From NCBI RefSeq assembly GCF_003018255.1, contig NZ_CP027440.1: a stretch of 64,000 nt of DNA. One strand, 5' to 3'. The notes beneath the pieces were generated by a model. The model saw nothing but the letters and a program-made list of their open reading frames with translations. It did no database searches and was not told where the DNA came from. This DNA is from Escherichia coli (GTDB taxonomy: Bacteria > Pseudomonadota > Gammaproteobacteria > Enterobacterales > Enterobacteriaceae). This document shows positions 4,110-57,541 of the stretch, in pieces; position 1 is the first letter of the stretch; each line of letters starts with the position of its first letter. A program made the position numbers and the translations under genes.

Positions 4110-4493
4110 GATCGCTCCATATTTTTAAGAACAGGTTATCCACAGAAATTGGGAAAGGTGTTTTCCGGTTTTTTCGTTTCGTTTTCCGGCGCTTTCCGCA
4201 ATCGCCATCCGCTTATCCACAACGCCGCACCTTTTTCGTGGGGAGTTGTAGTAGCAATTATAGTCGATTAATACAACATATTGGGTCGGGACGCATTTTA
4301 AAGTCTATATATAGTGCTTTGCATCAAGGATGTTTGAACTTTTTTTGATGTAGCTCAAAGTAAAAAGCAGAGCGTACGGATGACGGGCGCTACAGCGTTA
4401 TGTAAATTTTTTAATGAATTTTTTGATTATAAAATCAACATGCTGAAAGGCAAAACCCCGGAATGACCAGTATTACCGGGGCTTAGCGGATAC

Positions 4494-32896: not shown

Positions 32897-34573
32897 ATGG
32901 CACTAACAGATCGCGCTATAGTCCACGCCAAGCCTTGTGGCAAGCCGTATAAGCTCAGTGACTCGCATGGACTTTACCTGCTGGTTAACCCTAACGGTTC
33001 AAAACGCTGGTACATCAAGTACCGCTTTGTAAACAAAGAGAAAAAGCTCGCTTTAGGCCCTTATCCGCTTTTGACGCTTGCACAGGCAAGACGCATGCGT
33101 GAAGAGGCACAATTATTGCTGATTTCCGGCATCGATCCGAGTGCACGCCGAAAAGCAGAACGCCTTGCGATAACGCCGGAACATACGTTTGAGTCTGTGG
33201 CACGTGAATGGGTCACCAGTAACGTGAACTGGTCGGCGGAACATAAGAAGCGGGTGCTGCGTTATTTCGAGCTTTACGTATTCCCCACGAACGGCAGCTG
33301 TGACATCACCAAAATGAAGGTCAAAGATCTGCTGGTGCCCATCAAGGAAGTGGAGAAAGCGGGCAAACTGGATGTTGCTTCCCGGCTTCAGCAGCGCACT
33401 GCCTGCGTGATGCGCTACGCCGTCCAGAACGGCATTATCGATCATAACCCTGCATCAGATTTAACCGGCGCGGTCTCCACGCCCAAAGTACGGCATCACC
33501 CGGCGTTGGATCTGAATCTTATCCCTGATTTCCTGGAAAGAATCGACGATTACAAAGGCCGTCAACTGACTCAACTGGCGGTAAAACTGGCACTGCTGCT
33601 GTTTATCCGCTCCAGCGAACTGCGCTTTGCCCGCTGGGATGAAATTGATCTGCGTAACGCCATGTGGACCATCCCCGCTGAGCGTGAGCCGATCCCCGGC
33701 GTTAAATATTCAGCGCGTGGGGCGAAGATGCACTCCCCACACCTGGTCCCATTGTCACGTCAGGCCATCGAACTGCTGCACGAGGTGCGGCAGCATTGCC
33801 GACCGGGAACTGAACTGGTGTTCCCCGGCGATCACAATTACCGCAAGCCGATGAGTGAAAACACCATCAACAAAGCGCTGCGGGTGATGGGCTACGACAC
33901 CCAGAAAGATGTCTGTGGCCACGGTTTTCGCACTATGGCCTGTAGCGCGCTGGTGGAGTCGGGGCTGTGGTCAAGCGACGCGGTAGAGCGCCAGATGAGC
34001 CATCAGGAGCGCAAGCGCGTGCGTGCGGCGTATATCCACAAGGCGCAGCATCTCGAAGAACGTTGGGAGATGATGCAGTGGTGGGCGGATTATCTGGATG
34101 CAAACCGGTTCAGGCATGTTGTGCCGTATGGCTTCAAAAAGTCGCCGGGAGGCGCACTCGACCATATGAGTTTCCAGGAGCGCAATGACCGGCAGCTAGA
34201 GGAGCTGAAAGCCAGAATACTGGCTGACTCGGAATGGCTGACGGCGTCTGAATTATCCGCAAAAGCGGGCTTTCGTTCCGCCGATCCTGATGCTGGTCCG
34301 AAAGGCTGGAAAGCCGCCGGGAAGATATTCTCGCTGAAGGTCGATGGTGAGGATTTATACCCTGATTATGTTCTGGATGAGAAAATGCGGCCTCTCAAGG
34401 TTGTCCGTTTGATTCTTTCACTGTTTAAGGAGCGTAAAACACCGTGGGGGCTGGCTATCTGGTTTGGCTCGGCTAATCGCAGGTTGAGAGGTGGGAGGCC
34501 GAAAGACCTGCTGATTTCGAAGTCAGAGTTGGTTCTGATGGCGGCGCAGGAGGAGGTGGAGTCGGGGGAGTAG
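32897..34573 (+). CDS. P4-type tyrosine integrase with ~150-aa C-terminal extension
   Basis: 558 aa; N-terminal arm-binding region, catalytic HGFR and Tyr (AAYIH) region at ~aa 350-375; extension ends in a GGRPKDLL-type motif. Confidence 0.85.
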   Translation: MALTDRAIVHAKPCGKPYKLSDSHGLYLLVNPNGSKRWYIKYRFVNKEKKLALGPYPLLTLAQARRMREEAQLLLISGIDPSARRKAERLAITPEHTFESVAREWVTSNVNWSAEHKKRVLRYFELYVFPTNGSCDITKMKVKDLLVPIKEVEKAGKLDVASRLQQRTACVMRYAVQNGIIDHNPASDLTGAVSTPKVRHHPALDLNLIPDFLERIDDYKGRQLTQLAVKLALLLFIRSSELRFARWDEIDLRNAMWTIPAEREPIPGVKYSARGAKMHSPHLVPLSRQAIELLHEVRQHCRPGTELVFPGDHNYRKPMSENTINKALRVMGYDTQKDVCGHGFRTMACSALVESGLWSSDAVERQMSHQERKRVRAAYIHKAQHLEERWEMMQWWADYLDANRFRHVVPYGFKKSPGGALDHMSFQERNDRQLEELKARILADSEWLTASELSAKAGFRSADPDAGPKGWKAAGKIFSLKVDGEDLYPDYVLDEKMRPLKVVRLILSLFKERKTPWGLAIWFGSANRRLRGGRPKDLLISKSELVLMAAQEEVESGE

Positions 34574-34756: not shown

Positions 34757-35770
34757 ATGAGGTGTGAACAAATGAAGGAAGAACAGCTTTTGTCTGATGC
34801 GATAGAGAATCTGCCAAAAGGATTCCATTTGCAGTATGAACATAGCGGTAGACATGGTAAGCACGATGCCTGGGGTAAGCTAACAGGGCCGGATGGTGAG
34901 TCAGTGATATTTGCTCTGGAAGTAAAATTTATCCACCGTAAAGAGTCACTGATGGCTGTTCGCGAACAAATGGTTCGCTTTCCTGCGGATTTTCCTGTGC
35001 TGCTGGTGTGTAACCGCCTGACGTCTGCACTGGCGGAATATTGCGCCGACAGCCAGATCAACTTTATCGATACGGCAGGGAATGCCCGTATCCAGGTTCC
35101 AGGCTTGTATGTGCGGATCGAAGGCCGCTATGAAAAGAAACCCGTTTCCGCCAGCAGTCGTTTTGCTGAAGGGGTGATGAAGCTTCTTTTTGTTTTGCTG
35201 TCTAGCCCAGAGACCCTGAACGAGACTTACCGCAGTCTGGCCGGAAAGGCAGGTATCTCTCTGGGAATGGTCAGCAAGGCTTTTGATTATCTCGAAGCGC
35301 AACGCTATTTCCGCAAATCGAAGAAGGGGCGTCGCTTAATCAATGAAGGCGAGTTAGAGGCTTTGTGGCTGAAAGATTATGCTACAGCTTTGCGCCCTAA
35401 GCTGGATTCGCTTTCTTTATCCGCGCCTGTTTCATGGGATGAGTTGACGCTTGCGTCCGGGGAATACTGGAGCGGCGAGATTGCGGCGGCAAAGCTGAGC
35501 GGAGGATACCTGATACCAGAAAATGGCGTGATTTTTACATCCCATCCGTTGTTACAAAGGCGAAAGGAACTGGGACTAAAACCTGTTCCGGGGGGGAAAC
35601 TACAGCTGATCGCCGGTTTTTGGGGGAACTTTGTACTGAATCACAAAGCCGAGGCGATGCTATGCGTGGCTGAACTGCTGGCAAGCGGGGATGACAGAAA
35701 CTGGGAAACAGCAAGGATAATCAATGACAAATATCTTCACCTTAATGAATCCGATCTCTTCAGCTACTGA
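34757..35770 (+). CDS. Hypothetical protein with N-terminal PD-(D/E)xK-like motif and central winged-HTH
   Basis: 337 aa; GPDGESVIFALEVKF (PD...ExK pattern) and ISLGMVSKAFDYLEAQRYF HTH-like segment; alternative ATG at 34772. Confidence 0.6.
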   Translation: MRCEQMKEEQLLSDAIENLPKGFHLQYEHSGRHGKHDAWGKLTGPDGESVIFALEVKFIHRKESLMAVREQMVRFPADFPVLLVCNRLTSALAEYCADSQINFIDTAGNARIQVPGLYVRIEGRYEKKPVSASSRFAEGVMKLLFVLLSSPETLNETYRSLAGKAGISLGMVSKAFDYLEAQRYFRKSKKGRRLINEGELEALWLKDYATALRPKLDSLSLSAPVSWDELTLASGEYWSGEIAAAKLSGGYLIPENGVIFTSHPLLQRRKELGLKPVPGGKLQLIAGFWGNFVLNHKAEAMLCVAELLASGDDRNWETARIINDKYLHLNESDLFSY

Positions 35771-36533
35771 AACGTTACTGAGTCAGATCAACCGTATTTG
35801 CACCGCTCAGGGGATCCCGTTTTTTATTGCAGGTGCAACGGCTCGTGAAATTCTGCTCCATCATATACACAGCAGAAGTATTGGTCGCCGAACCCGTGAT
35901 ATTGATATTGCCGTCTTTGTGGATAGCTGGCCGAGATTTGATGCGCTTAAAAATGCTTTCCTTGCTGAAGGGGCAGAAGTTGTCCAAGGTAATGCCCATC
36001 GTATGATTGTCAAAGGGATCGAGCTAGATATTATTCCTTTTGGTGGTGTTGCTGAAGGAAATCAAATTGCCTGGCCACCAGAACGTGAGATCATAATGGC
36101 TGTGGATGGATTTGCCGAAGTCTTTTCTCATACCGTAGTTGTGCGGCTGGATAACAGCGAAAATATTCCGTTCTGCTCCTTGCCAGGACTGGCTCTGTTA
36201 AAACTTTTTGCATGGCGTGATCGTGGGCATGGGAGTACTAAAGACGCGACCGATCTCTTTAAGATTATCTGTGAATATGGTGTTATCGAGAATGAACGCA
36301 TCTATGAATCGCCCGTCGAAGGGGAACGCCTGAACTGGGATCCCATACGTATGGGCGCTTTTCTGTTGGGAAGCGATATAGCGACAATTAGTGAACACTC
36401 ATCCTTGCAGGATTTACTCCATCTTGATAAAGAACGCCTGATCGATGTGATAGTACGACAACATGACGTGGGTGATGCTGGGATTGAGCAGATCATCAAT
36501 GATTTCTGGGATGGTATGGCAAGTGATGGTTGA
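35724..36533 (+). CDS. Pol-beta-superfamily nucleotidyltransferase (AbiEii/DUF1814-like motif pattern)
   Basis: 269 aa; AGATA...GRRTRDIDIAVFV then DIIPFGG acidic motif; overlaps upstream gene by up to 47 nt. Confidence 0.6.
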   Translation: MTNIFTLMNPISSATETLLSQINRICTAQGIPFFIAGATAREILLHHIHSRSIGRRTRDIDIAVFVDSWPRFDALKNAFLAEGAEVVQGNAHRMIVKGIELDIIPFGGVAEGNQIAWPPEREIIMAVDGFAEVFSHTVVVRLDNSENIPFCSLPGLALLKLFAWRDRGHGSTKDATDLFKIICEYGVIENERIYESPVEGERLNWDPIRMGAFLLGSDIATISEHSSLQDLLHLDKERLIDVIVRQHDVGDAGIEQIINDFWDGMASDG

Positions 36534-36678: not shown

Positions 36679-36800
36679 CGACATCATCAAACTGAAGGTC
36701 AAAGGCTTGCTGGTTCCCATCAAAGATAGTGGAGAACGCAGGTAAACTTGATGTTCCACCTTCCACGGCGCACCGCACCTTCGGCATGATGCGCTAATAT
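36679..36800 (+). pseudogene. Internal fragment of a P4-type integrase gene (frameshifted)
   Basis: About 75-80 percent nucleotide identity to 33302-33420 of the intact integrase (by-eye alignment); reading frame breaks. Confidence 0.6.
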
Positions 36801-36840
36801 TATGGCTATATAGGTATTGAAAAGATAAAATATTATCACT

Positions 36841-37329
36841 ATGGCTAAAAAAACGGCTCCCTTAGTTCCCGGTACTAATCAGTTGCTTGCTGAGTTTGGC
36901 GAACGGCTTAAGCTGGCGCGACTGCGACGTAAGCTCACAGCGAAGCGGGTTGCTGAGCGAGCCGGGATGTCGCCAATGACCTTGCGTTCTCTTGAATCAG
37001 GCGGGACGGGCGTGACAATCGGCGCTTATTTGTCAGTTATGCAGATTTTGGGTCTTGAAAAGGATCTGAACAAACTTGCCGCTGAGGATGAACAGGGACG
37101 CCAACTTCAGGATTCCCGGCTAATAAATAAAACGCGTGTTTCTCGTCCTGCTGCTATCTCTCACACAAACAGGCATACCGGAAACGTGATAAAAAACGAT
37201 GCCTTCGACAAGCAATTCTCGACATCACAAGAAAAATCAATCGATTCTGAAGTTAAAACAGAAGTCGTGACATCTGCATCTCTTGCTGCACTGCTAAAAC
37301 CAATAAAGAAACCCAGAAAAGGTAGCTGA
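36841..37329 (+). CDS. XRE-family HTH protein
   Basis: 162 aa, N-terminal HTH_3-type segment ([32 protein letters not shown]). Confidence 0.7.
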
Positions 37330-37692
37330 CACGCTGGAATTTTTGTATTGAAACGAGGGACTATAGATTTCGATAGCAAAAAATAAAGCCTGCTGATGAT
37401 ATGTTTAAAAAATGCCAAAAAATGTACATATGGCGTTGATATGTCGATGCTGTAAACATATTTTGGCGTTATGTCGATAAAACTGGTTTTTTTAAACATA
37501 TCGTCATGCTTAATCCAACCGCTCAATCAGTCTTATATCTGTTATGGAAAATGCTTGTAAAATGGCGCGTTCTGCCATCTGGCAATGTTCATATTTACTG
37601 GCTCGAGGAATATCGTCCCCCCTTAATTTCCATGAAAAGTAATTTTAATTCATTTAGTTATTAATCTTTTCTCCGCTGAGAATATGAATTTT

Positions 37693-37710
37693 TATCCCCT
37701 ATAGGGGATA
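37693..37710. promoter_or_regulatory. 18-bp perfect palindrome TATCCCCTATAGGGGATA matching HipB operator consensus TATCC-N8-GGATA
   Basis: Perfect palindrome 30 bp upstream of the HipB-like ATG; a related TATCC...GGATA site at 37724-37737. Confidence 0.6.
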
Positions 37711-37739
37711 TGCTCAAAATATCTATCCTGGGGGATAAA

Positions 37740-38081
37740 ATGAACGTAACCTCACCCAAAATGTTGTCTCAGGCAATCAGGGATGCACGCAAGCAACGTA
37801 ACCTGACCCAGCGTGAAACTGCAGCAAGTATGGGCATGAAACAGTCAACGGTTTCAGAGTTTGAGAACCATCCTGAGGGGACCAGCCTGGATACGCTCTT
37901 TAAGCTGCTTGCCGCTCTGGACCTTAAGCTTCAGGTCGTAAGCTGGAGGGGTAAAAAAACTCTTCTGATGGCTGGGAGCAGGAGTGGTGATCTGTGGAAA
38001 TATGAACAAAAAGGCCATGGCGCTATCCGGACGGAACCACCATTTTCACTAGCGTACCATCTGGATTTCCAGAGCACATAA
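37740..38081 (+). CDS. HipB-like XRE-family HTH regulator with C-terminal extension
   Basis: MNVTSPKMLSQAIRDARKQRNLTQRETAASMGMKQSTVSEFENHPEGTSLDTLFKLLAALDLKLQVV resembles HipB; operator palindrome upstream. Confidence 0.65.
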   Translation: MNVTSPKMLSQAIRDARKQRNLTQRETAASMGMKQSTVSEFENHPEGTSLDTLFKLLAALDLKLQVVSWRGKKTLLMAGSRSGDLWKYEQKGHGAIRTEPPFSLAYHLDFQST

Positions 38082-38207
38082 GAGAAGCTATTTTTGCATC
38101 AGTCAGCGCGTATTCCGTAGCCATCTCGGCAGTAGTTGAAACAGTAAAAAATGCCCCTATTTCATGGCTAATTAACCGCTAAATTCCAGCCATGGAGGAA
38201 ACCACCG

Positions 38208-38474
38208 ATGTCACCTCGGACACACCGCCAGCTCGTAAGTGTTGAAGTGATGTGGCCTGCTCAGACGCTACCGCTTCCCCTACAACAGGTAGTCGAAGCA
38301 TTGAATCAGGGCGAAACGCCCGATCAGATTATTATCCGCATGAACCAACGGGGTCTGCTGGCGTGGCGTGAGGATGCATCCGCGCAGGATACACACGATA
38401 TCTTTCAGGTACGTCTGGACAACCAGAATGAGGCGCGATTTCTCTGCCGCTACGTTACGTTGCCGCTGCACTGA
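38208..38474 (+). CDS. Hypothetical protein (88 aa)
   Basis: ORF with GGAGGA RBS 7 nt upstream of ATG; no recognisable domain. Confidence 0.4.
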   Translation: MSPRTHRQLVSVEVMWPAQTLPLPLQQVVEALNQGETPDQIIIRMNQRGLLAWREDASAQDTHDIFQVRLDNQNEARFLCRYVTLPLH

Positions 38475-38585
38475 TGCCCCTATCCCGGTAACGCGAAATT
38501 GAAGAGTGCTGTTTATCACCGGATAAATTAATATGCTATAAAATAAAGAGTTAGCAAATGTCGTTTCAGGGATGATGAGTTGTAA

Positions 38586-39239
38586 ATGAAGAAGAAACTG
38601 CCAGACCAGCTTTCCAGGGAATGCATTATTGCGGCTATGCGTGCCTATGATGAAGGTGTACGCCACCAGTTCAGCGAGTCCCGGCTGTATGATGTGGTCT
38701 TTGAAGGGCGCAGTTATCCACCGAAAGCTATAGTCGGTATTGCTGCTTCAAATATGACTGGCGTTGAGTTTTCCCCTGAAGATTTTAGTGGTGGTATCAA
38801 GTCGAAATGCGTCAAGTTGCTTACCGATCAAGGGTTCCAGATCGTTGAGAAACATTTGGGTAACGAGCAGCCCGCCATCAGTATTTTTCCTGATGAACTG
38901 CCACCGCAGAGCGTATTTACTGAAGGTGCAGCTACGCAGGTAACGGTTAATCGCTATGAACGCGACCGTAAGGCCCGACAGGCCGCATTAGCCTGGCATG
39001 GTTGTCTGTGCAAAGTATGTGGTATTGATATGATGAAGGTGTATGGCGAGATAGCGAAAGGTTTTATCCATATACACCACCTGATTCCGCTATCAGACAT
39101 CAAAGAGAATTACTCTCTGGATCCCAAAAAAGATTTTATTCCCGTCTGCCCAAATTGCCACGCCATGTTGCATCGGCGTAATCCGCCTTTTTCGCCTGAA
39201 GAATTGAAATCAATTATTGAATATCATGCGGCTCTTTAG
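38586..39239 (+). CDS. HNH endonuclease family protein (McrA-like HNH core; unknown N-terminal domain)
   Basis: CKVCG...HIHHLIPLS...CPNCH motif set typical of HNH nucleases in the C-terminal third. Confidence 0.75.
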   Translation: MKKKLPDQLSRECIIAAMRAYDEGVRHQFSESRLYDVVFEGRSYPPKAIVGIAASNMTGVEFSPEDFSGGIKSKCVKLLTDQGFQIVEKHLGNEQPAISIFPDELPPQSVFTEGAATQVTVNRYERDRKARQAALAWHGCLCKVCGIDMMKVYGEIAKGFIHIHHLIPLSDIKENYSLDPKKDFIPVCPNCHAMLHRRNPPFSPEELKSIIEYHAAL

Positions 39240-39294
39240 GTATTAAAGCCCATTCGCTGTAGCTCGGTGGAAGAGAGTATTTTGATATAAATAG

Positions 39295-40884
39295 CTATTC
39301 GCGCAGCAACTTCAGCCACGGATTATTCACCGGCACTTTCTCCCCCAACACCTGCTTCGGATCTTCCATCAGAAACCCTTTCAACTGACTACTTTTCTTT
39401 TGTGGAACCCGAACCTCGCAGATCCAGATAAAACTGTCATCATTACAGCGCAGGGCCAGCCCTGACTCCTGAAACATTCGTTGCGCCAGTTTCCAGCCGT
39501 CGCCGCTATCGCCTGTGGTTTCTGCTGCGTATGTTTTAAAGATCCCCGGCGAAATCAAGAAAAGATGGTTTTCCACCACATGTACCTTGCCGTTCCGGGT
39601 ATTCACCGTGGCTGAAGGACTAGTGTGGTTCTTCAGCCACTGCAGGAAATTGTTATTGTCACCAAGCCTCGGATCGTCTGCTATCTCCGGTAACGGTTGA
39701 GTCGGTGCGCTAAGTTCAGGAGCGGGTTCGGCTTCAATTACCGGCGTTACATCACCATCGAAACAGGCCGGACGTTGATCATCCTGCCCCCAGATTACAG
39801 ACGGCGTCAGGCGCAGTAGCGTCAGCGGTTCAACGGGCGACCAGCCTTTATCCGATCGGATAATGCAGCGCCAAATCGCTTTATCTTCGTTGGCAACAAT
39901 AAGCTGATGCGTCAGCAGTTCGTCAAACAGGCGGTTATTGTTTTCCGGCACGCTGGAAACTCCATGCTGGAGCAGCCAGGCGCGAACCCGGTCGGCGGTG
40001 GTTTTGCTGATAAGCCACAGCGCATCCTCCGTCAGCCAGCCATCGGATCCGCATTCGGGATTATTGAGCCGGTACTCGTTCTGTACCAGCGACCGCAAGG
40101 CTGTAAGAAGTTGCTGGGGGAAGGAAGAGGGCTTTTGCGCCAGCGCGGTTTTGATATCGCCGCCGAGGTATCGGGCGACAGAGGCTTTATCGGCCTGCTG
40201 CACCAGTTCAGCCAGTGCGCCAGACCGTTCGTAGTGTCCGGTGAGCTGGTAAATCAGGGACGCAAAAGCCGCCGGGTATCCGGCCAGCCAGTCCAGTAAT
40301 GGCGAGGGTATCAACTGATTAATCAGCATTGCGGTAGCCGCCGGATGCAGATGATAGTCGCGACCGTGGCTCTGGTACTGCCAGCGATAAGGCTGTGCCA
40401 GATAACCCTGCCACGAATGCCAGCGGGTGCCATCACGTTGATGAATCTCCATATCCACGGCGATTTTTCCCGTATCGTGCAGTAATGCCACGCAGACCAC
40501 TGCGACCGTCCATGCGCTGGCCTGCCGGGCCTGTTCTTCCGCGCCCGCTTCCGGTGGTAGCAGATAACCCTGGCGCAGTCGGATGGCGTTGCAGGCAACC
40601 TCCAGCGAATGATCCAGCAACCCGCCGGGAGTGGAATGGTGATGACTTTGTGAGGCGGGAAGCAGTTGTACCAACGCGGCGAAGCGATGAATCGCCGCGA
40701 GGATCCAGCTATCAAACAGGGTATCCGGCAGCGGGGTCAGTTGCCGTAACTGGTGCAAACAGGACTGGCGTAACGGCGTCGCCAGCAATTGTTCTGCGGA
40801 TTGTGGCGCAAACCAGCCCTCCGGCAGCGTAGCGTCTGGCGTAGGTGGCTGGCTCTGGGATGGTCTTTTTAGCCACTTCAGCAT
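39295..40884 (-). CDS. HD-domain protein, putative MobH-family conjugative relaxase (TraI-like)
   Basis: 529 aa; H...HD metal-binding pattern (LLDHSLEV...ALLHDTGK); neighbours are conjugative-element genes. Confidence 0.55.
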   Translation of the reverse strand: MLKWLKRPSQSQPPTPDATLPEGWFAPQSAEQLLATPLRQSCLHQLRQLTPLPDTLFDSWILAAIHRFAALVQLLPASQSHHHSTPGGLLDHSLEVACNAIRLRQGYLLPPEAGAEEQARQASAWTVAVVCVALLHDTGKIAVDMEIHQRDGTRWHSWQGYLAQPYRWQYQSHGRDYHLHPAATAMLINQLIPSPLLDWLAGYPAAFASLIYQLTGHYERSGALAELVQQADKASVARYLGGDIKTALAQKPSSFPQQLLTALRSLVQNEYRLNNPECGSDGWLTEDALWLISKTTADRVRAWLLQHGVSSVPENNNRLFDELLTHQLIVANEDKAIWRCIIRSDKGWSPVEPLTLLRLTPSVIWGQDDQRPACFDGDVTPVIEAEPAPELSAPTQPLPEIADDPRLGDNNNFLQWLKNHTSPSATVNTRNGKVHVVENHLFLISPGIFKTYAAETTGDSGDGWKLAQRMFQESGLALRCNDDSFIWICEVRVPQKKSSQLKGFLMEDPKQVLGEKVPVNNPWLKLLRE

Positions 40885-54214: not shown

Positions 54215-55762
54215 ATGGAATATTCTATGTCGGATATTGTCGCCGGGAACAGGATTGCTGCTCAATATTTAAGAATGTCTACCGAGCATCAGAAATATTC
54301 GCCGGAGAACCAGCGGGAATATATCGAGAAGTATGCAAAAGAACACTGTATTACCATTAAATATACCTATGACGACGCTGGCCGAAGTGGGCTGAGCCTG
54401 GATAACAGGCCTGGCCTGCGTTCGCTGTTATATGATGTTGAAAACGGAATAATAAAAGTCTCGTTAATTCTTGTTTACGATGTCAGTCGGTTTGGTCGTT
54501 TTCAGGATATTGAAGAGGCTGCTCATTACTCGTGGCTACTGAAGCGTAATGGTGTGCGCATTATTTATTGCGCGGAGCCTTTCTCGGAAGAACAGACCGA
54601 ATTGTTTATGCTGGGATTATCTTACTCCCGCTATGGCGCCGCAACTTACAGTAAAAACCTTTCACAAAAAGTTTTTCTTGGCCAGGCAAACCTCGTTCGG
54701 CGGGGTTATTATCAAGGTGGTATGCCTGGCTATGGCATTCGGAGATTATTAATTGATGAACATACTAATCCGAAAGGCATGCTTCTGCCGGGGCAAAGGA
54801 AAAGCCTGCAAACTGACAGAGTAATATTGATCCCGGGGCCCGCGGAAGAGGTGGTAATAGTCAATAAAATCTATGACATGTTTATTGATGAGGGCAAGCC
54901 TGAGTTTGTTATTGCTTCAGAACTGAACCGGAAGAACATCCCCGCCGAGAATGGGCTCCAGTGGAGCCGATGTAAAATTCATCAGATACTGACCAATGAA
55001 AAATATATTGGCAATAATGTTTATAACAGAACCTCCGGACGATTGAAGACCCGAAGTGTCAGGAATCCTCAGGATCAGTGGATCAGATGTGACGGCGCGT
55101 GGGACCCTGTGGTATCAGTAGAGAAATTTGAGGCGGCTAAAAGGATTATTGAAGCCAGGGCCGTTCAGTACAGTGATGATGAACTGCTGGATAAACTACG
55201 CCATCTGCTGAAGCTTCGTGGCAGATTATCCGGGATTGTGATTGATGAAGAGGAACTGTTTCCATCGAGCAGCATTTTTCGTTCACGGTTTGGTGGGTTA
55301 GTCAGGGCTTACACCCTTATTGGTTATCACCCGCGCCATGATTACTCTTATCTTGAAATAAAAAAGCAGATTGCAGAATGCCATCTCACTTTCATGGATA
55401 ATTTGGTGCAGGATATATACCGATATGGCGGTTGGGCAGAGATGCATCAGGATGGTTCATTATATATTAATGATGAGTTTTTTGTTTCCGCTAATCTGGT
55501 TCGCTGCCAACGTTTGTCGTCAGGTAAGCTTCGTTGGAAGATAAAATTTAATGTATCCCATTATTGTGATGTCATGATCTTTCCACGGTTGGATAGCACA
55601 AATAACTCCGTGGTTGATTACTTTATGTTTCCGGCTATTGATGTGTTGTATAACGATTTAACGCTTCATGAGAACAATGGTTTTATCCTCGAACTATATC
55701 GATTTGATGATTTGTCATGTCTGGAAAATCTTGTAAAACGAACTGGTCTGGAGAGTAAATAA
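54215..55762 (+). CDS. Large serine recombinase
   Basis: 515 aa; N-terminal resolvase catalytic motif YLRMSTEHQ; starts 11 nt after adhesin stop. Confidence 0.8.
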   Translation: MEYSMSDIVAGNRIAAQYLRMSTEHQKYSPENQREYIEKYAKEHCITIKYTYDDAGRSGLSLDNRPGLRSLLYDVENGIIKVSLILVYDVSRFGRFQDIEEAAHYSWLLKRNGVRIIYCAEPFSEEQTELFMLGLSYSRYGAATYSKNLSQKVFLGQANLVRRGYYQGGMPGYGIRRLLIDEHTNPKGMLLPGQRKSLQTDRVILIPGPAEEVVIVNKIYDMFIDEGKPEFVIASELNRKNIPAENGLQWSRCKIHQILTNEKYIGNNVYNRTSGRLKTRSVRNPQDQWIRCDGAWDPVVSVEKFEAAKRIIEARAVQYSDDELLDKLRHLLKLRGRLSGIVIDEEELFPSSSIFRSRFGGLVRAYTLIGYHPRHDYSYLEIKKQIAECHLTFMDNLVQDIYRYGGWAEMHQDGSLYINDEFFVSANLVRCQRLSSGKLRWKIKFNVSHYCDVMIFPRLDSTNNSVVDYFMFPAIDVLYNDLTLHENNGFILELYRFDDLSCLENLVKRTGLESK

Positions 55763-56649
55763 TGAAATCTTTTGATGAACAGATAGAACTTGTCGATATC
55801 AGTGATATTTATATCGCAAATCCACGGAAAAGGAATAAATTCATTCATAATGAAATAAAAGAGAACATAAAAACCATTGGTCTGAAACGGCCTGTTAGCG
55901 TGCGCCCAGTGAATAATGAAAACTATAAATATGCCCTGATTTGTGGTCAGGGACGACTTGAAGCGTATATTGAGTATGGTGAAACGAAAATTCCTGCAAT
56001 CATCAAGCAGGTTGATGAAGAGACAGCGCACCTGATGAGCCTGGCTGAAAACATCGCAAGACGTAATCCCCGGGCGGCAGAGCTAATGGAAGATATCAGA
56101 AGAATGAAGACCAGTGGCCTGACCGATCGTGAAATAGGCTTGCGGCTTGGGTATAATTCGAGTTGGGTAAATGGGGTGATCACTCTGTTGTCATCCGGAG
56201 AGAAGCATCTTTTGCGGGCATTTGAGACTGGCGATATTCCCTTGTATCTTGCTGTGGAAATATCCCGGTCAGGAGATGAGGAAACTCAGGAACTGCTGAC
56301 GGTCGCCCTGAAAGAAGGACATATCAAGGGTGGGCAAATTAATAAGATCAGGCGCATACTTGAACAACGTAAGAAAGGCGATAAAGGTACGATTAGTACG
56401 GCTTTTTTTCCTGGGAAAAAACAGAAAAAACTGACCCCGGAAGAACTGGCTAATGTCTACCAGGAAAACATTAATGAGCAAAAAGCCATTCTGCTGAAAT
56501 CCACAATGGTTAAAGAGAAAATTCTGGCAGTAAAGCAAATATTTGGTTATTTACTTAAAGATAATGATTTTGTTACATTGCTGCACAGTAATAATATCCA
56601 CGATATTCCTTCTTTACTGGATGGCAGTGATGTATCGGGGGAGAAATAA
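55762..56649 (+). CDS. ParB-like protein (ParB/Srx N-domain plus HTH)
   Basis: PVSVRPV...ICGQGRLEA...IPAIIK...ENIARRN pattern resembles ParB boxes; TAATG overlap with recombinase. Confidence 0.7.
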   Translation: MKSFDEQIELVDISDIYIANPRKRNKFIHNEIKENIKTIGLKRPVSVRPVNNENYKYALICGQGRLEAYIEYGETKIPAIIKQVDEETAHLMSLAENIARRNPRAAELMEDIRRMKTSGLTDREIGLRLGYNSSWVNGVITLLSSGEKHLLRAFETGDIPLYLAVEISRSGDEETQELLTVALKEGHIKGGQINKIRRILEQRKKGDKGTISTAFFPGKKQKKLTPEELANVYQENINEQKAILLKSTMVKEKILAVKQIFGYLLKDNDFVTLLHSNNIHDIPSLLDGSDVSGEK

Positions 56650-56650
56650 G

Positions 56651-57541
56651 ATGATTTCACAATGTTTTGACTCCCGATTTTATACCTTTAAGGTGGAATC
56701 ACTGGTGTATGCCAGAACGCTGCCGGTTAATGTTAAATTCAGTACGAAGTACAAACAAATTAAAGCCTCTGTCGATGAAATTGGGTTAATTGAACCCATT
56801 GTGGTTTATATCAATGACGCCAATGATAAAGTCATTCTGGATGGACATCTTCGCGTTGAAGTTTTGAAAGAACTCGGAATAACTACTGCTCATTGTCTGA
56901 TATCCCCTGTGGAGGATACATATTCATATAACAAACGTGTTAGTCGCCTTACCATTGTGCAGGCCCAAAACATGCTGCTTAAAGCGGTTGAATCTGGCGT
57001 TTCAGTTGAAAAACTATGCGCCGTACTGGGTGTCACGCCAGATACGCTGATTGGTAAACTGAAAATTTCTGATGGCATTGCCCCTGAAGTCATGGCGTTA
57101 CTGGCAGAAAAAAATGTACCGCAGACCATTTTCTCTGTGTTGAAAAAACTAAAGTTCTATAAGCAGATAGAAATGGTTAACACCATGATCAGTATTAATA
57201 ATTTCACCCGCAAATTTGCGATGTCGATGCTGCATGCCGTTGCCCCTGAACATCTTGTAGCGCCTAAAAAAGATGCCAGCAGAGAAACAGATATCAGAAA
57301 AAATCTCGAAAGACTGGAAAAAGAAATGGCTTCCGTTCAGGTGGAAACGCAGCATCTTCAGGATGAATATGCTGAGAATAACCTTCGGCTGGTTATCATT
57401 AAAAATCACATTGAACGTCTGCTGGCGAACGGTCAGGTACTTAACTGGCTTTATGATAACCATCAGGAGTACCTTTCTGTGCTCAAGCAAATCTCGGGGC
57501 TGGATGATTTGAATAAGCTTGGCCAGACAATTGAGGAATGA
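56651..57541 (+). CDS. ParB-like protein, second paralogue
   Basis: Start ATG 56651 with GGGGGAG RBS, 1 nt after previous stop; VILDGHLRVEVLKELG ParB/Srx-like motif. Confidence 0.6.
   Translation: MISQCFDSRFYTFKVESLVYARTLPVNVKFSTKYKQIKASVDEIGLIEPIVVYINDANDKVILDGHLRVEVLKELGITTAHCLISPVEDTYSYNKRVSRLTIVQAQNMLLKAVESGVSVEKLCAVLGVTPDTLIGKLKISDGIAPEVMALLAEKNVPQTIFSVLKKLKFYKQIEMVNTMISINNFTRKFAMSMLHAVAPEHLVAPKKDASRETDIRKNLERLEKEMASVQVETQHLQDEYAENNLRLVIIKNHIERLLANGQVLNWLYDNHQEYLSVLKQISGLDDLNKLGQTIEE

Follow-up and report, generated by a model that had tools for sequence, protein, structure and literature searches.

Probable remains of a hipBA toxin–antitoxin cassette on an Escherichia coli conjugative element

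The hipBA operon of Escherichia coli K-12 is a type II toxin–antitoxin system in which HipB is the repressor and HipA a Ser/Thr kinase. HipB binds four TATCCN8GGATA operators (PMC3920265), and its residues 73–88, which are unstructured, act as a Lon degron and are not needed to bind DNA or HipA (PMC3376134). A related arrangement, HipBST, is recognised by hipB followed by hipS (~100 aa, resembling the HipA N-terminal subdomain) and hipT (a kinase of ~335 aa). In Klebsiella pneumoniae, orphan antitoxins are very frequent for the HipA and Fic toxin groups specifically (Horesh et al. 2020, PMC7192599).

Here, we analyze a locus within a 64,000-nucleotide stretch of E. coli DNA (the window). An earlier sequence-only reading had offered two explanations for it, either decay of a hipBA locus or recruitment of a HipB-type regulator to another effector. 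We find that the locus is most probably a decayed hipBA toxin–antitoxin cassette on a conjugative element, with a probability of roughly 85%. The first explanation is borne out by a frameshift in hipB, by a hipA start and last ~40 codons that can still be recognised, and by other pieces of hipA in sister elements. This is ordinary toxin–antitoxin decay: the locus is a pseudogenised member of HipBA, not a functional system, and does not belong in counts of functional or novel toxin–antitoxin or defence systems. The features are listed below by position in the window; L numbers denote loci with which it was compared.

36841–37329, plus strand: 162-aa HTH gene, a second orphan Hip-type antitoxin (NCBIfam couple_hipB TIGR03070, E = 5.5e-7)
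37394–37506, plus strand: array of inverted and direct repeats (ATATGTCGAT / TAAACATAT half-sites, ~35-bp period), a presumed relic of a fic upstream region
37436–37464, plus strand: sigma-70-like match TTGATA-17-TATTTT in the array, directed toward the would-be fic start (consensus only)
37693–37710, no strand: HipB operator at −47, a perfect TATCC-N8-GGATA palindrome equivalent to O3 of four
37709–37714, plus strand: −10-like hexamer TATGCT, the last two operator bases plus 4 nt; a putative, not a mapped, promoter element
37720–37737, no strand: second HipB operator at −20 (TATCT-N8-GGATA, 1 mismatch), equivalent to O4 and overlapping the ribosome-binding site GGGGGA
37740–38081, plus strand: annotated 113-aa HTH ORF, a frameshifted hipB; codons 1–73 native, 74–113 out of frame and running through the hipA remnant
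37953–37959, plus strand: A7 run left by the 1-nt deletion that puts hipB out of frame (GGTAAAAACAAT in intact relatives)
37960–37990, plus strand: native hipB 3' end, out of frame (NSSDGWEQEW, then stop TGA at 37988–37990), from frame-3 translation against homologues
37994–38000, plus strand: hipA start remnant (GTG GAA A, V-E-K...), aligned with ATGGAAAAG of Yersinia and GTGGAAAAA of L018; the deletion junction follows directly
38008–38121, plus strand: hipA 3' remnant, approximately HipA residues 349–366 and 407–431, from tblastn and alignment with L021; native stop TAG at 38119–38121
38208–38474, plus strand: 88-aa conserved hypothetical gene of this ICE (integrative conjugative element) family, outside the hipBA cassette; present without hipB in L003 and L004
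38586–39239, plus strand: HNH endonuclease gene (ScoMcrA_N + HNH), resembling type IV restriction enzymes

The HTH gene had been called HipB-like from the sequence, and the homology is real. Its product, a small Xre/Cro-type HTH protein, scores 67.9 bits against the NCBIfam HipB model NF007271 (E = 5.7e-19), which is below the 79-bit equivalog cut-off, and matches E. coli HipB structures in the PDB at E = 1.6e-13 with the KQ(S/A)T(V/I)S recognition-helix motif kept; its Pfam matches are HTH_3/HTH_37, and homologues are paired with HipA in Yersinia and Marinobacter. Most of the HipB homologues (n = 86) are 83 aa long and end in DGW(D/E)QEW. The 83-aa proteins terminate in GKNNSSDGWDQEW, and the window carries KNSSDGWEQEW and a stop codon in another frame. 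By alignment it has one base fewer than the intact hipB genes of Klebsiella, Salmonella and Yersinia, and the native tail with its conserved Trp is out of frame. The frameshift is common to all six locus-bearing E. coli genomes and is therefore no sequencing error. The C-terminal extension of ~45 aa seen in the earlier reading is no domain: because of the 1-nt deletion, translation runs on out of frame for 40 codons. Hence WP_024196150.1, the 113-aa 'helix-turn-helix domain-containing protein' of these E. coli genomes, is frameshifted hipB plus hipA debris.

Two HipB operators precede the gene. The perfect 18-bp palindrome reported upstream of its ATG is present (TATCCCCTATAGGGGATA) and ends 29 nt before the ATG at 37740; the second site (TATCTATCCTGGGGGATA, 1 mismatch) had been missed. 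TATCC-N8-GGATA alone is not significant, with 3 matches at ≤1 mismatch in 64 kb against 1.2 expected, and the two sites are meaningful because they are placed at −47 and −20 as in intact hipBA loci. The third match, at 56901, was rejected as an operator and attributed to chance; it falls within a ParB-like CDS and has no HTH gene close by. Operators of the Yersinia hipBA stand at −102, −75, −47 and −20. The −47 position is common to the window, the Yersinia hipBA and the Klebsiella and Salmonella ICEs, and the −20 position to the window, Yersinia (where the site is perfect), L018 and L021. K-12 has four operators, L018 three and the window two, the distal pair having been lost. Homology of L018, L021 and L023 to the window begins precisely at 37693, and the left edge of the operator is a rearrangement breakpoint. 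Elsewhere a TTGAnn −35 hexamer adjoins the O3 equivalent (TTGAAA in L018); the window has AATTTT instead. The −10 position, 16 nt past the TTGAnn hexamer, is TATACT in Yersinia, TATATT in L018 and TAAAAC in K-12. A consensus scan found no canonical sigma-70 promoter at hipB, which fits the lost −35 hexamer, and the promoter would presumably be crippled.

That no HipA-type kinase follows hipB, as the sequence-only reading had stated, holds at the level of ORFs: an adjacent kinase (Couple_hipA + HipA_C, ~430–440 aa) is absent. The statement fails for the DNA itself, in which the start codon and a ~115-nt 3' remnant of hipA persist. A tblastn search, its query the Yersinia HipA that is paired with the HipB homologue there, gives two matches downstream of hipB, at 38008–38091 and 38054–38125. 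Their E-values are 3.9e-4 and 6e-3, against 2.9e-7 in the sister locus L008; the matches are short (24–38 aa) and the E-values modest and from a tiny search space. In a phmmer search of the PDB the C-terminal remnant matched nothing relevant; it became recognisable only when the query was the HipA encoded next to a close HipB homologue. A stop codon, frameshifts and the loss of 11 nt disrupt the remnant, and its native stop was placed by alignment to L021, which ends in SEAIFEGLRHQSARIP and a stop codon. The clear HipA pseudogene remnants that the earlier reading had named as refuting it are present in substance, but they lie between hipB and the 88-aa ORF and do not replace the downstream ORFs.

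Other elements retain other parts of the toxin gene. The ICE of K. pneumoniae MGH 78578 keeps HipA residues 1–160 (69% identical to Yersinia HipA) at the equivalent position, preceding the same 88-aa ORF, HNH and mobH genes. The hipA deletion junction differs among all four of the window type, L018, L021 and L023 (homology to the window ends at 38007 for L018 and at 37999 for L023), hipB is spared in each, and three of the four lineages carry an intact orphan 83-aa hipB. The hipBA-less ICE L003 becomes homologous to the window 3 nt past the hipA stop codon, which marks the cassette boundary.

From these complementary fragments a complete ancestor can be reconstructed. It would have lain between the repeat array and the 88-aa gene of the ICE and comprised four TATCC-N8-GGATA operators, a promoter, hipB and hipA. 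A rearrangement at 37693 would have removed the two upstream operators and the −35 hexamer. Deletion of hipA codons ~4–348 would have left the start codon and a scrambled ~115-nt 3' end, in which a further 11 nt would have been lost. On the E. coli branch, hipB lost one nucleotide, which created the A7 run and put 40 out-of-frame residues in place of the native 10-residue tail (...NSSDGWEQEW). Residues 1–73 of HipB, its HTH and dimerisation core, are intact, with no toxin to neutralise; if made from the crippled promoter, this core probably still binds the two remaining operators and represses itself. No complete hipBA of the exact window lineage was found inside an ICE, and none was intact among 5426 complete E. 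coli genomes, of which only six hipB'-bearing ones matched. The divergent HipB alleles P0029 and P0028 were checked for an intact ICE-borne hipBA, and both proved to be orphans again, with new deletion junctions. The path of decay can be followed to the base pair: the toxin would have been lost first and repeatedly, with the antitoxin and proximal operators lingering and later eroding.

Four independent losses of hipA, each sparing hipB and the proximal operators, could also mean that selection maintains the orphan hipB for immunity or anti-addiction, to neutralise or repress incoming HipA toxins of the same lineage on competing plasmids and ICEs. The anti-addiction idea is established in literature cited by PMC7192599. 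Intact 83-aa hipB is widespread (clusters on 154–328 contigs), and its presence with conserved operators on hundreds of contigs in three of the four deletion lineages may reflect selection and not merely a lack of decay. However, decay can run in one order only, because a cell that loses the antitoxin before the toxin dies, and toxin-first loss therefore requires no selection for hipB. Moreover, frameshifted alleles are fixed in two lineages, the commonest hipB allele carries an L-to-P change in a beta-strand, and the window has lost the native C-terminal tail including the conserved Trp. The dN/dS of hipB is 0.16 versus L018 and 0.11 versus Yersinia; within the deletion lineage it is 0.75–1.5, from very small counts (only 1–2 synonymous versus 3–6 non-synonymous changes). 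The gene diverges by 2.3–3.2% compared with 2.8–5.6% in flanking non-coding DNA, and is thus not conserved above its surroundings. These figures suggest relaxed constraint on hipB, and we consider selection for the orphan distinctly unlikely.

The second explanation of the earlier reading would make orphan HipB a co-opted repressor of the 88-aa ORF and the HNH nuclease, genes that came to lie 127 nt behind hipB after the hipA deletion and are possibly transcribed from the HipB promoter. No terminator-like site was found between hipB and the 88-aa ORF, leaving transcriptional coupling possible, the order hipB, 88-aa ORF, HNH recurs in Klebsiella, Salmonella and E. coli elements, and the operators are conserved. 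Against this, both downstream genes occur without hipB in sister ICEs. The 88-aa ORF is also found behind fic or other cargo and has its own conserved 84-nt upstream region, which begins right past the hipA stop codon, where homology to the hipBA-less element restarts. The gene 3' of it is variable, with a GNAT gene or McrBC in place of HNH at the same position in sister elements, and the HNH gene is independent defence cargo. The proposed regulator is itself frameshifted in both the window and the MGH 78578 lineage, its dN/dS is near 1, and its promoter lacks the −35 hexamer and two operators. Recruitment to a different effector is therefore highly improbable. The length of the 88-aa ORF is constant down to ~62–66% identity. 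It has no match in NCBIfam, PADLOC or PHROG and only a non-significant one in Pfam (BrxA, E = 0.085), and a Foldseek search of the PDB with its AF2 model (pLDDT 82.5, confident) returned nothing below E = 0.1.

Decay of a hipBA cassette leaves the upstream repeats to be explained, which had been described as iteron-like and linked to the HipB operator. The array is bounded by a 19-nt inverted repeat (37394–37412 / 37488–37506). The direct repeats reported in this AT-rich intergenic region are present at 37426–37448 / 37456–37478, far above chance. So are the three 9-mers (ATATGTTTA/TAAACATAT at 37399, 37453 and 37493), but these do not alternate in orientation as had been stated, one copy facing one way and two the other. 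The composite TGTCGAT-N(2-16)-AAACAT occurs twice in the array against 0.07 expected in the window, and five ATATGT/ACATAT hexamers fall within 121 nt, a count reached by none of 5000 shuffles. The sigma-70-like match in the array is weak (1 found versus 2.4 expected from shuffles). The array is present in every related ICE, including those without hipB. In L003, L023 and 164 Salmonella plasmids the last repeat, ending in TAAACATATG, contains the start codon of fic; the ~105 nt directly 5' of these fic genes are 77–79% identical to the window array and have the same half-sites. The window has no fic after its array and no detectable fic remnant in the stretch 37250–38250. We infer that the array is the upstream, presumably promoter/operator, region of a lost fic gene, and its supposed link to the HipB operator does not stand.

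The repeats could instead be functional themselves, as an origin of transfer (oriT), as replication-origin iterons or as sites of recombination at cassette boundaries. The array is retained without fic in the window, L004, L018 and L021, and the last repeat is exactly where conservation stops in three of these, L004, L018 and the window. Palindromic half-sites recur regularly in the array at a ~35-bp period, and a mobH relaxase gene lies ~1.8 kb away. However, iterons are commonly direct repeats of ~17–22 bp beside a rep initiator gene; here inverted and direct half-sites are intermixed and form no tandem direct array, and no rep gene is near. The array directly adjoins the fic ATG in L003, L023 and the 164 plasmids as a 5' regulatory region would, the tandem-repeat expansion of the array in one strain (L002) is typical of unconstrained DNA, and an Rfam scan of 37200–38650 returned no RNA family. 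The literature searched gave no oriT sequence or position for this ICE family. A XerC/D (dif-like) identity of the repeat units was dropped as unsupported, the match being weak and from comparison by eye. A function of the array in its own right appears unlikely, and the 'iterons' mark no replication origin.

A composite of these ideas is likewise improbable. Orphan HipB and its two proximal operators would be maintained, either as immunity or anti-addiction against rival HipA or as a repressor gating read-through into the 88-aa ORF and HNH gene; frameshifted alleles might still yield a little native HipB through −1 slippage at the A7 run, and in parallel the fic-associated array could serve as a cassette-boundary recombination site.

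Loss of toxins extends beyond hipBA. The 162-aa HTH gene has a homologue in E. coli CFT073 (74% identical) that is followed 3 nt on by a 'HipA family toxin' gene. Its partner would be a HipA_C kinase of ~422 aa that is absent in the window; no remnant of this second HipA-like kinase was found in 37250–37760 or across 37250–38250. Three neighbouring modules (HipA-like kinase, fic and hipA) have thus each lost the toxic or enzymatic gene and kept harmless parts, and the cargo zone of this MobH-type ICE is in all likelihood a graveyard of toxin modules. The pattern agrees with published surveys, in which HipA- and Fic-associated orphan antitoxins are very common. The host ICE of the window is inserted beside a tRNA-Leu gene.

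Compared with hipBA of E. coli K-12, the locus has a homologous HipB HTH core with the same recognition-helix motif, TATCC-N8-GGATA operators at ~27–28-bp spacing with the promoter interleaved with the last two, and a native hipB C-terminus that likewise ends in EW. In contrast to K-12, the window has two operators and not four, no −35 hexamer, a hipB frameshifted after codon 73 and, of hipA, just the start codon plus ~115 nt from the 3' end. In the window the ribosome-binding site is overlapped by the last operator, which in K-12 lies 22 nt upstream of the ATG, and the window locus is on an ICE whereas hipBA of K-12 is in the core chromosome. The nearest intact relative found is the chromosomal hipBA of Yersinia massiliensis (L012), in which the −47 and −20 operators are just as far from the start codon as in the window, an 83-aa HipB terminates in WDQEW, and HipA matches both the window remnants and the N-terminal fragment of Klebsiella. 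Unlike the window, L012 is intact: all four of its operators are perfect, its −35 hexamer reads TTGATT, and the gene for a HipA of 431 aa starts 4 nt after hipB.

In HipBST of E. coli O127 and the Haemophilus HipA(N)/HipA(C) systems (PMC9438503), as in the window, a HipB-type HTH gene is followed by something shorter than full HipA, and the 171-aa Couple_hipA fragment of the Klebsiella variant superficially resembles HipS or HipA(N). This fragment was rejected as a native split gene: it ends in out-of-frame sequence shared with the window remnant (QRVFRSHL(V/G)SS) and is a deletion product. Unlike in these systems, no HipT- or HipA_C-type kinase gene lies downstream in the window, and the 88-aa ORF has no Hip family match (NCBIfam, Pfam, PADLOC). 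With the SoFic-like fic cassettes (Fic_N + Fic + SoFic-like_C) of Salmonella conjugative plasmids and sister ICEs, whose protein carries a winged-helix domain at its C-terminus, the window shares the upstream array; unlike them it has no fic, diverging at the position of the fic ATG (ATATG to ATATC). The closest parallel in kind is with the orphan antitoxins of Klebsiella (PMC7192599), which likewise persist without a toxin in the original genetic context. Unlike in that catalogue, the course of decay in the window is known at single-base-pair resolution, and there are four independent deletions of the toxin gene to compare.

The palindrome and the HTH gene starting at 37740 read as a pseudogenised member of the HipBA family, one of two possibilities raised by the sequence-only reading: HipB homology and operators are present, hipB is frameshifted, and a hipA start and 3′ remnants persist. 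The window DNA is E. coli chromosome, and 36800-39300 is 100% identical to JNE23-011 and JNE112863 and ~94% identical to four further strains. The hipB locus is part of the cargo zone of an integrative conjugative element (ICE) of MobH type, inserted beside a tRNA-Leu gene, in the order integrase, AbiEi/AbiEii, 162-aa HTH gene, hipB-like HTH gene, 88-aa ORF and HNH endonuclease, beyond which the mobH relaxase, ardC and conjugation genes follow on the opposite strand.

By homology, the HTH gene is a true HipB relative. Its product matches solved E. coli HipB structures (E=1.6e-13, residues 3-72) with the recognition-helix motif KQ(S/A)T(V/I)S conserved, and reaches 67.9 bits with the NCBIfam equivalog model for HipB, NF007271, short of its 79-bit cut-off. 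Most of its 86 relatives in a 5.8-billion-protein collection are exactly 83 aa and end in VVSRRGKNNSSDGWDQEW; in the window this native tail lies in another frame (KNSSDGWEQEW, stop at 37988-37990). DNA alignment places the window hipB one base short of its intact counterparts in Klebsiella, Salmonella and Yersinia (GGTAAAAACAAT to GGTAAAAAAAC), a loss that produces an A7 run at 37953-37959, and the annotated 113-aa product is therefore native residues 1-73 plus 40 out-of-frame residues. What had been taken for a C-terminal extension of ~45 aa is thus a frameshift. It is a real mutation and not an assembly error: all six E. coli genomes carrying the locus share the allele, which also turns up in a protein cluster of 30 members. 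Residues 73-88 of E. coli HipB form an unstructured degron for Lon, and neither operator binding nor HipA binding requires them (PMC3376134), so the window may still encode a functional DNA-binding core. The A7 run recurs at the same place (~4214-4220) in L018, the related element of K. pneumoniae MGH 78578, and a ribosomal -1 slip or insertion of one A by RNA polymerase on it would restore a native-like tail (GKKNSSDGWEQEW, then stop).

The 18-bp perfect palindrome TATCCCCTATAGGGGATA is present at 37693-37710 as described, and a second operator-like site that had been missed (TATCTATCCTGGGGGATA, 37720-37737, one mismatch) overlaps the ribosome-binding site of the gene. The TATCC-N8-GGATA motif is not rare alone, with three matches (one mismatch or fewer) in the 64-kb window versus 1.2 expected. 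The third, an exact match at 56901-56918 (TATCCCCTGTGGAGGATA), falls within a 332-aa ParB-like ORF (56543-57541) that adjoins a second ParB-like ORF (55762-56649); no HipB-like gene lies nearby, and this match is best attributed to chance. The textbook layout has four operators with this consensus, to which HipB binds cooperatively (PMC3920265). The intact chromosomal hipBA of Yersinia massiliensis, the nearest intact relative found, carries four perfect sites (-102, -75, -47 and -20 relative to the start of hipB). K-12 also has four, comparably spaced, against three in L018, and the window lineage retains just the pair at -47 and -20. The window becomes homologous to L018, and to the related elements L021 (Salmonella) and L023, precisely from 37693 onward, where the -47 site has its left edge. 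In every locus retaining the upstream part, a TTGAnn hexamer abuts this edge and is followed after 16 nt by a TAnnnT -10 formed by the final two bases of the operator and the four beyond it. The window lineage has AATTTT in place of the hexamer, so the -35 is gone, and keeps a -10-like TATGCT (37709-37714). A consensus scan found no promoter at hipB, which is probably expressed weakly or by read-through.

More distant HipB homologues, from Yersinia massiliensis and Marinobacter, have a HipA gene 4 nt downstream (431-439 aa, Couple_hipA and HipA_C domains). The sequence-only reading had seen no HipA-type kinase and proposed tblastn downstream of hipB; with Yersinia HipA, this recovered remnants at 38008-38091 (KKAMALSGRNHHFH, then stop; HipA residues 349-380, E=3.9e-4) and 38054-38125 (VPSGFPEHIREAIF; residues 407-430, E=6e-3), and a stronger match in the Klebsiella element L008 (E=2.9e-7). 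The hipA start codon is kept at 37994 (GTG GAA A versus ATG GAA AAG in Yersinia), and alignment to a Salmonella element retaining the tail SEAIFEGLRHQSARIP with its stop places the native stop at 38119-38121 and reveals a further 11-nt deletion in the window. Related elements have lost hipA at four different junctions, with hipB spared in all four: codons ~4-348 are deleted in the window type; L018 keeps HipA residues 1-160 (69% identical to Yersinia HipA), joined to the same last few bases before the same 88-aa ORF, HNH and mobH genes; L021 fuses residues ~22-47 to ~417-431; and in L023 an inverted fic gene replaces hipA from codon 3. These sister elements show that hipBA was at one time a complete cassette, from which hipA has been lost more than once. 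Toxin-first loss is the sole viable order of decay.

The other original proposal, a HipB-type regulator recruited to a different effector, finds no support at the cassette boundary. Homology to L003, a sister ICE without hipBA, resumes at ~38124, 3 nt past the hipA stop, which marks hipBA as having been a self-contained cassette and leaves the 88-aa ORF, together with its leader of 84 nt, outside it. This ORF (38208-38474) encodes a small, conserved protein that is confined to Enterobacterales elements belonging to this ICE family and constant at 88 aa down to ~62-66% identity. Its AF2 model is confident (pLDDT 82.5, beta-alpha-alpha-beta3) but matches no PDB fold, and the protein falls into no family; an internal stop makes the ORF a pseudogene in E. 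coli C11, and L004 (E. coli O152:H23) has a truncated copy.

Intact 83-aa hipB alleles persist widely, as they might if the orphan were retained in an anti-addiction role, which is possible. Against this, dN/dS over codons 1-73 is 0.75-1.5 within the deletion lineage (tiny counts of 1-2 synonymous and 3-6 non-synonymous changes; 0.16 versus L018 and 0.11 versus Yersinia), hipB diverges by 2.3-3.2%, much like the non-coding DNA on either side (2.8-5.6%), the most frequent intact allele has an L-to-P change in the C-terminal strand, and MGH 78578 is a second lineage frameshifted at the same A-run. Together, at low power, these comparisons favour neutral erosion.

The direct and inverted repeats upstream of hipB are real and far beyond chance. 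The three 9-mers described as alternating are oriented one-plus-two, and the supposed tie to hipB dissolves, given that the array also occurs in the hipB-less L003 and L004 and abuts fic elsewhere. The palindromic half-site array (ATATGTCGAT / TAAACATAT, ~35-bp period) is conserved at:

Window, 37394-37506
L003, 4746-4917
L023, 6377-6548
NZ_AP026951.1 (a Salmonella conjugative plasmid), 34993-35097

The composite TGTCGAT-N(2-16)-AAACAT occurs at one place per element in 1-4 copies, L003 and L004 included. In L003, L023 and 164 Salmonella conjugative plasmids, NZ_AP026951.1 among them, the array lies directly 5′ of a fic gene (Fic_N, Fic and SoFic-like_C) whose start codon comes from the last repeat (TAAACATATG), with no Shine-Dalgarno sequence. 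The window departs at this start-codon position (ATATC) and holds no detectable fic remnant. The most economical reading is that the array would be a relic fic promoter/operator region. Three further sister elements (L004, L018 and L021) retain it in the absence of fic, and in the window, L004 and L018 conservation stops precisely where the last repeat does, which leaves a slim chance that the array serves in its own right, for instance as a recombination site or oriT. At the array's left edge, C11 (L002 6610-6680, window ~37407-37424) carries the 10-nt unit AATGCCAAAA in ~7 tandem copies versus one in the window, which accounts for a 61-nt length difference between strains.

Next to this putative fic relic, the 162-aa HTH gene (36841-37329) has a match to the antitoxin model couple_hipB/Y4mF. 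Its 74%-identical CFT073 homologue has a frameshifted HipA-family toxin gene 3 nt downstream, and ~1040 of 5426 complete E. coli genomes carry that chromosomal homologue. The gene is therefore an orphan too, an antitoxin whose partner is another HipA-type kinase (~422 aa, with HipA_C alone), present as an apparently intact 422-aa gene in L021 (1-407), where an inserted McrBC system separates it from the array, and as a two-piece remnant in L004 (4034-4663); no remnant was found in the window. With this kinase, fic and hipA lost, three adjacent modules each lack their toxic or enzymatic gene. Just 5′ of them, the AbiEi/AbiEii type IV toxin-antitoxin (abortive-infection) pair (34757-36533) is apparently intact; AbiEii diverges from that of L008 by an unusually high 8.4%, versus 1.6-3.9% in flanking segments. 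The 558-aa integrase ORF (32897-34573) has a ~140-aa C-terminal part (WFGSANRRLRGGRPKDLL) past the recombinase domains, which we take to resemble an Xre/MbcA/ParS-type antitoxin toxin-binding domain; PGAP calls the identical gene a partial pseudogene in NZ_AP045067.1 and an intact 558-aa integrase in C11.

The chief worth of these results is an annotation correction, along with a clean illustration of how a toxin-antitoxin cassette decays on an ICE. Compared with known HipBA systems, the locus shares homology to HipB as well as operators of the right motif and geometry; it lacks a full-length HipB and any HipA gene. It is not a functional HipBA system, nor is it a HipBST-type variant. The finding is real yet ordinary: orphan antitoxins are well documented, with the HipA and Fic toxin groups specifically included (PMC7192599).
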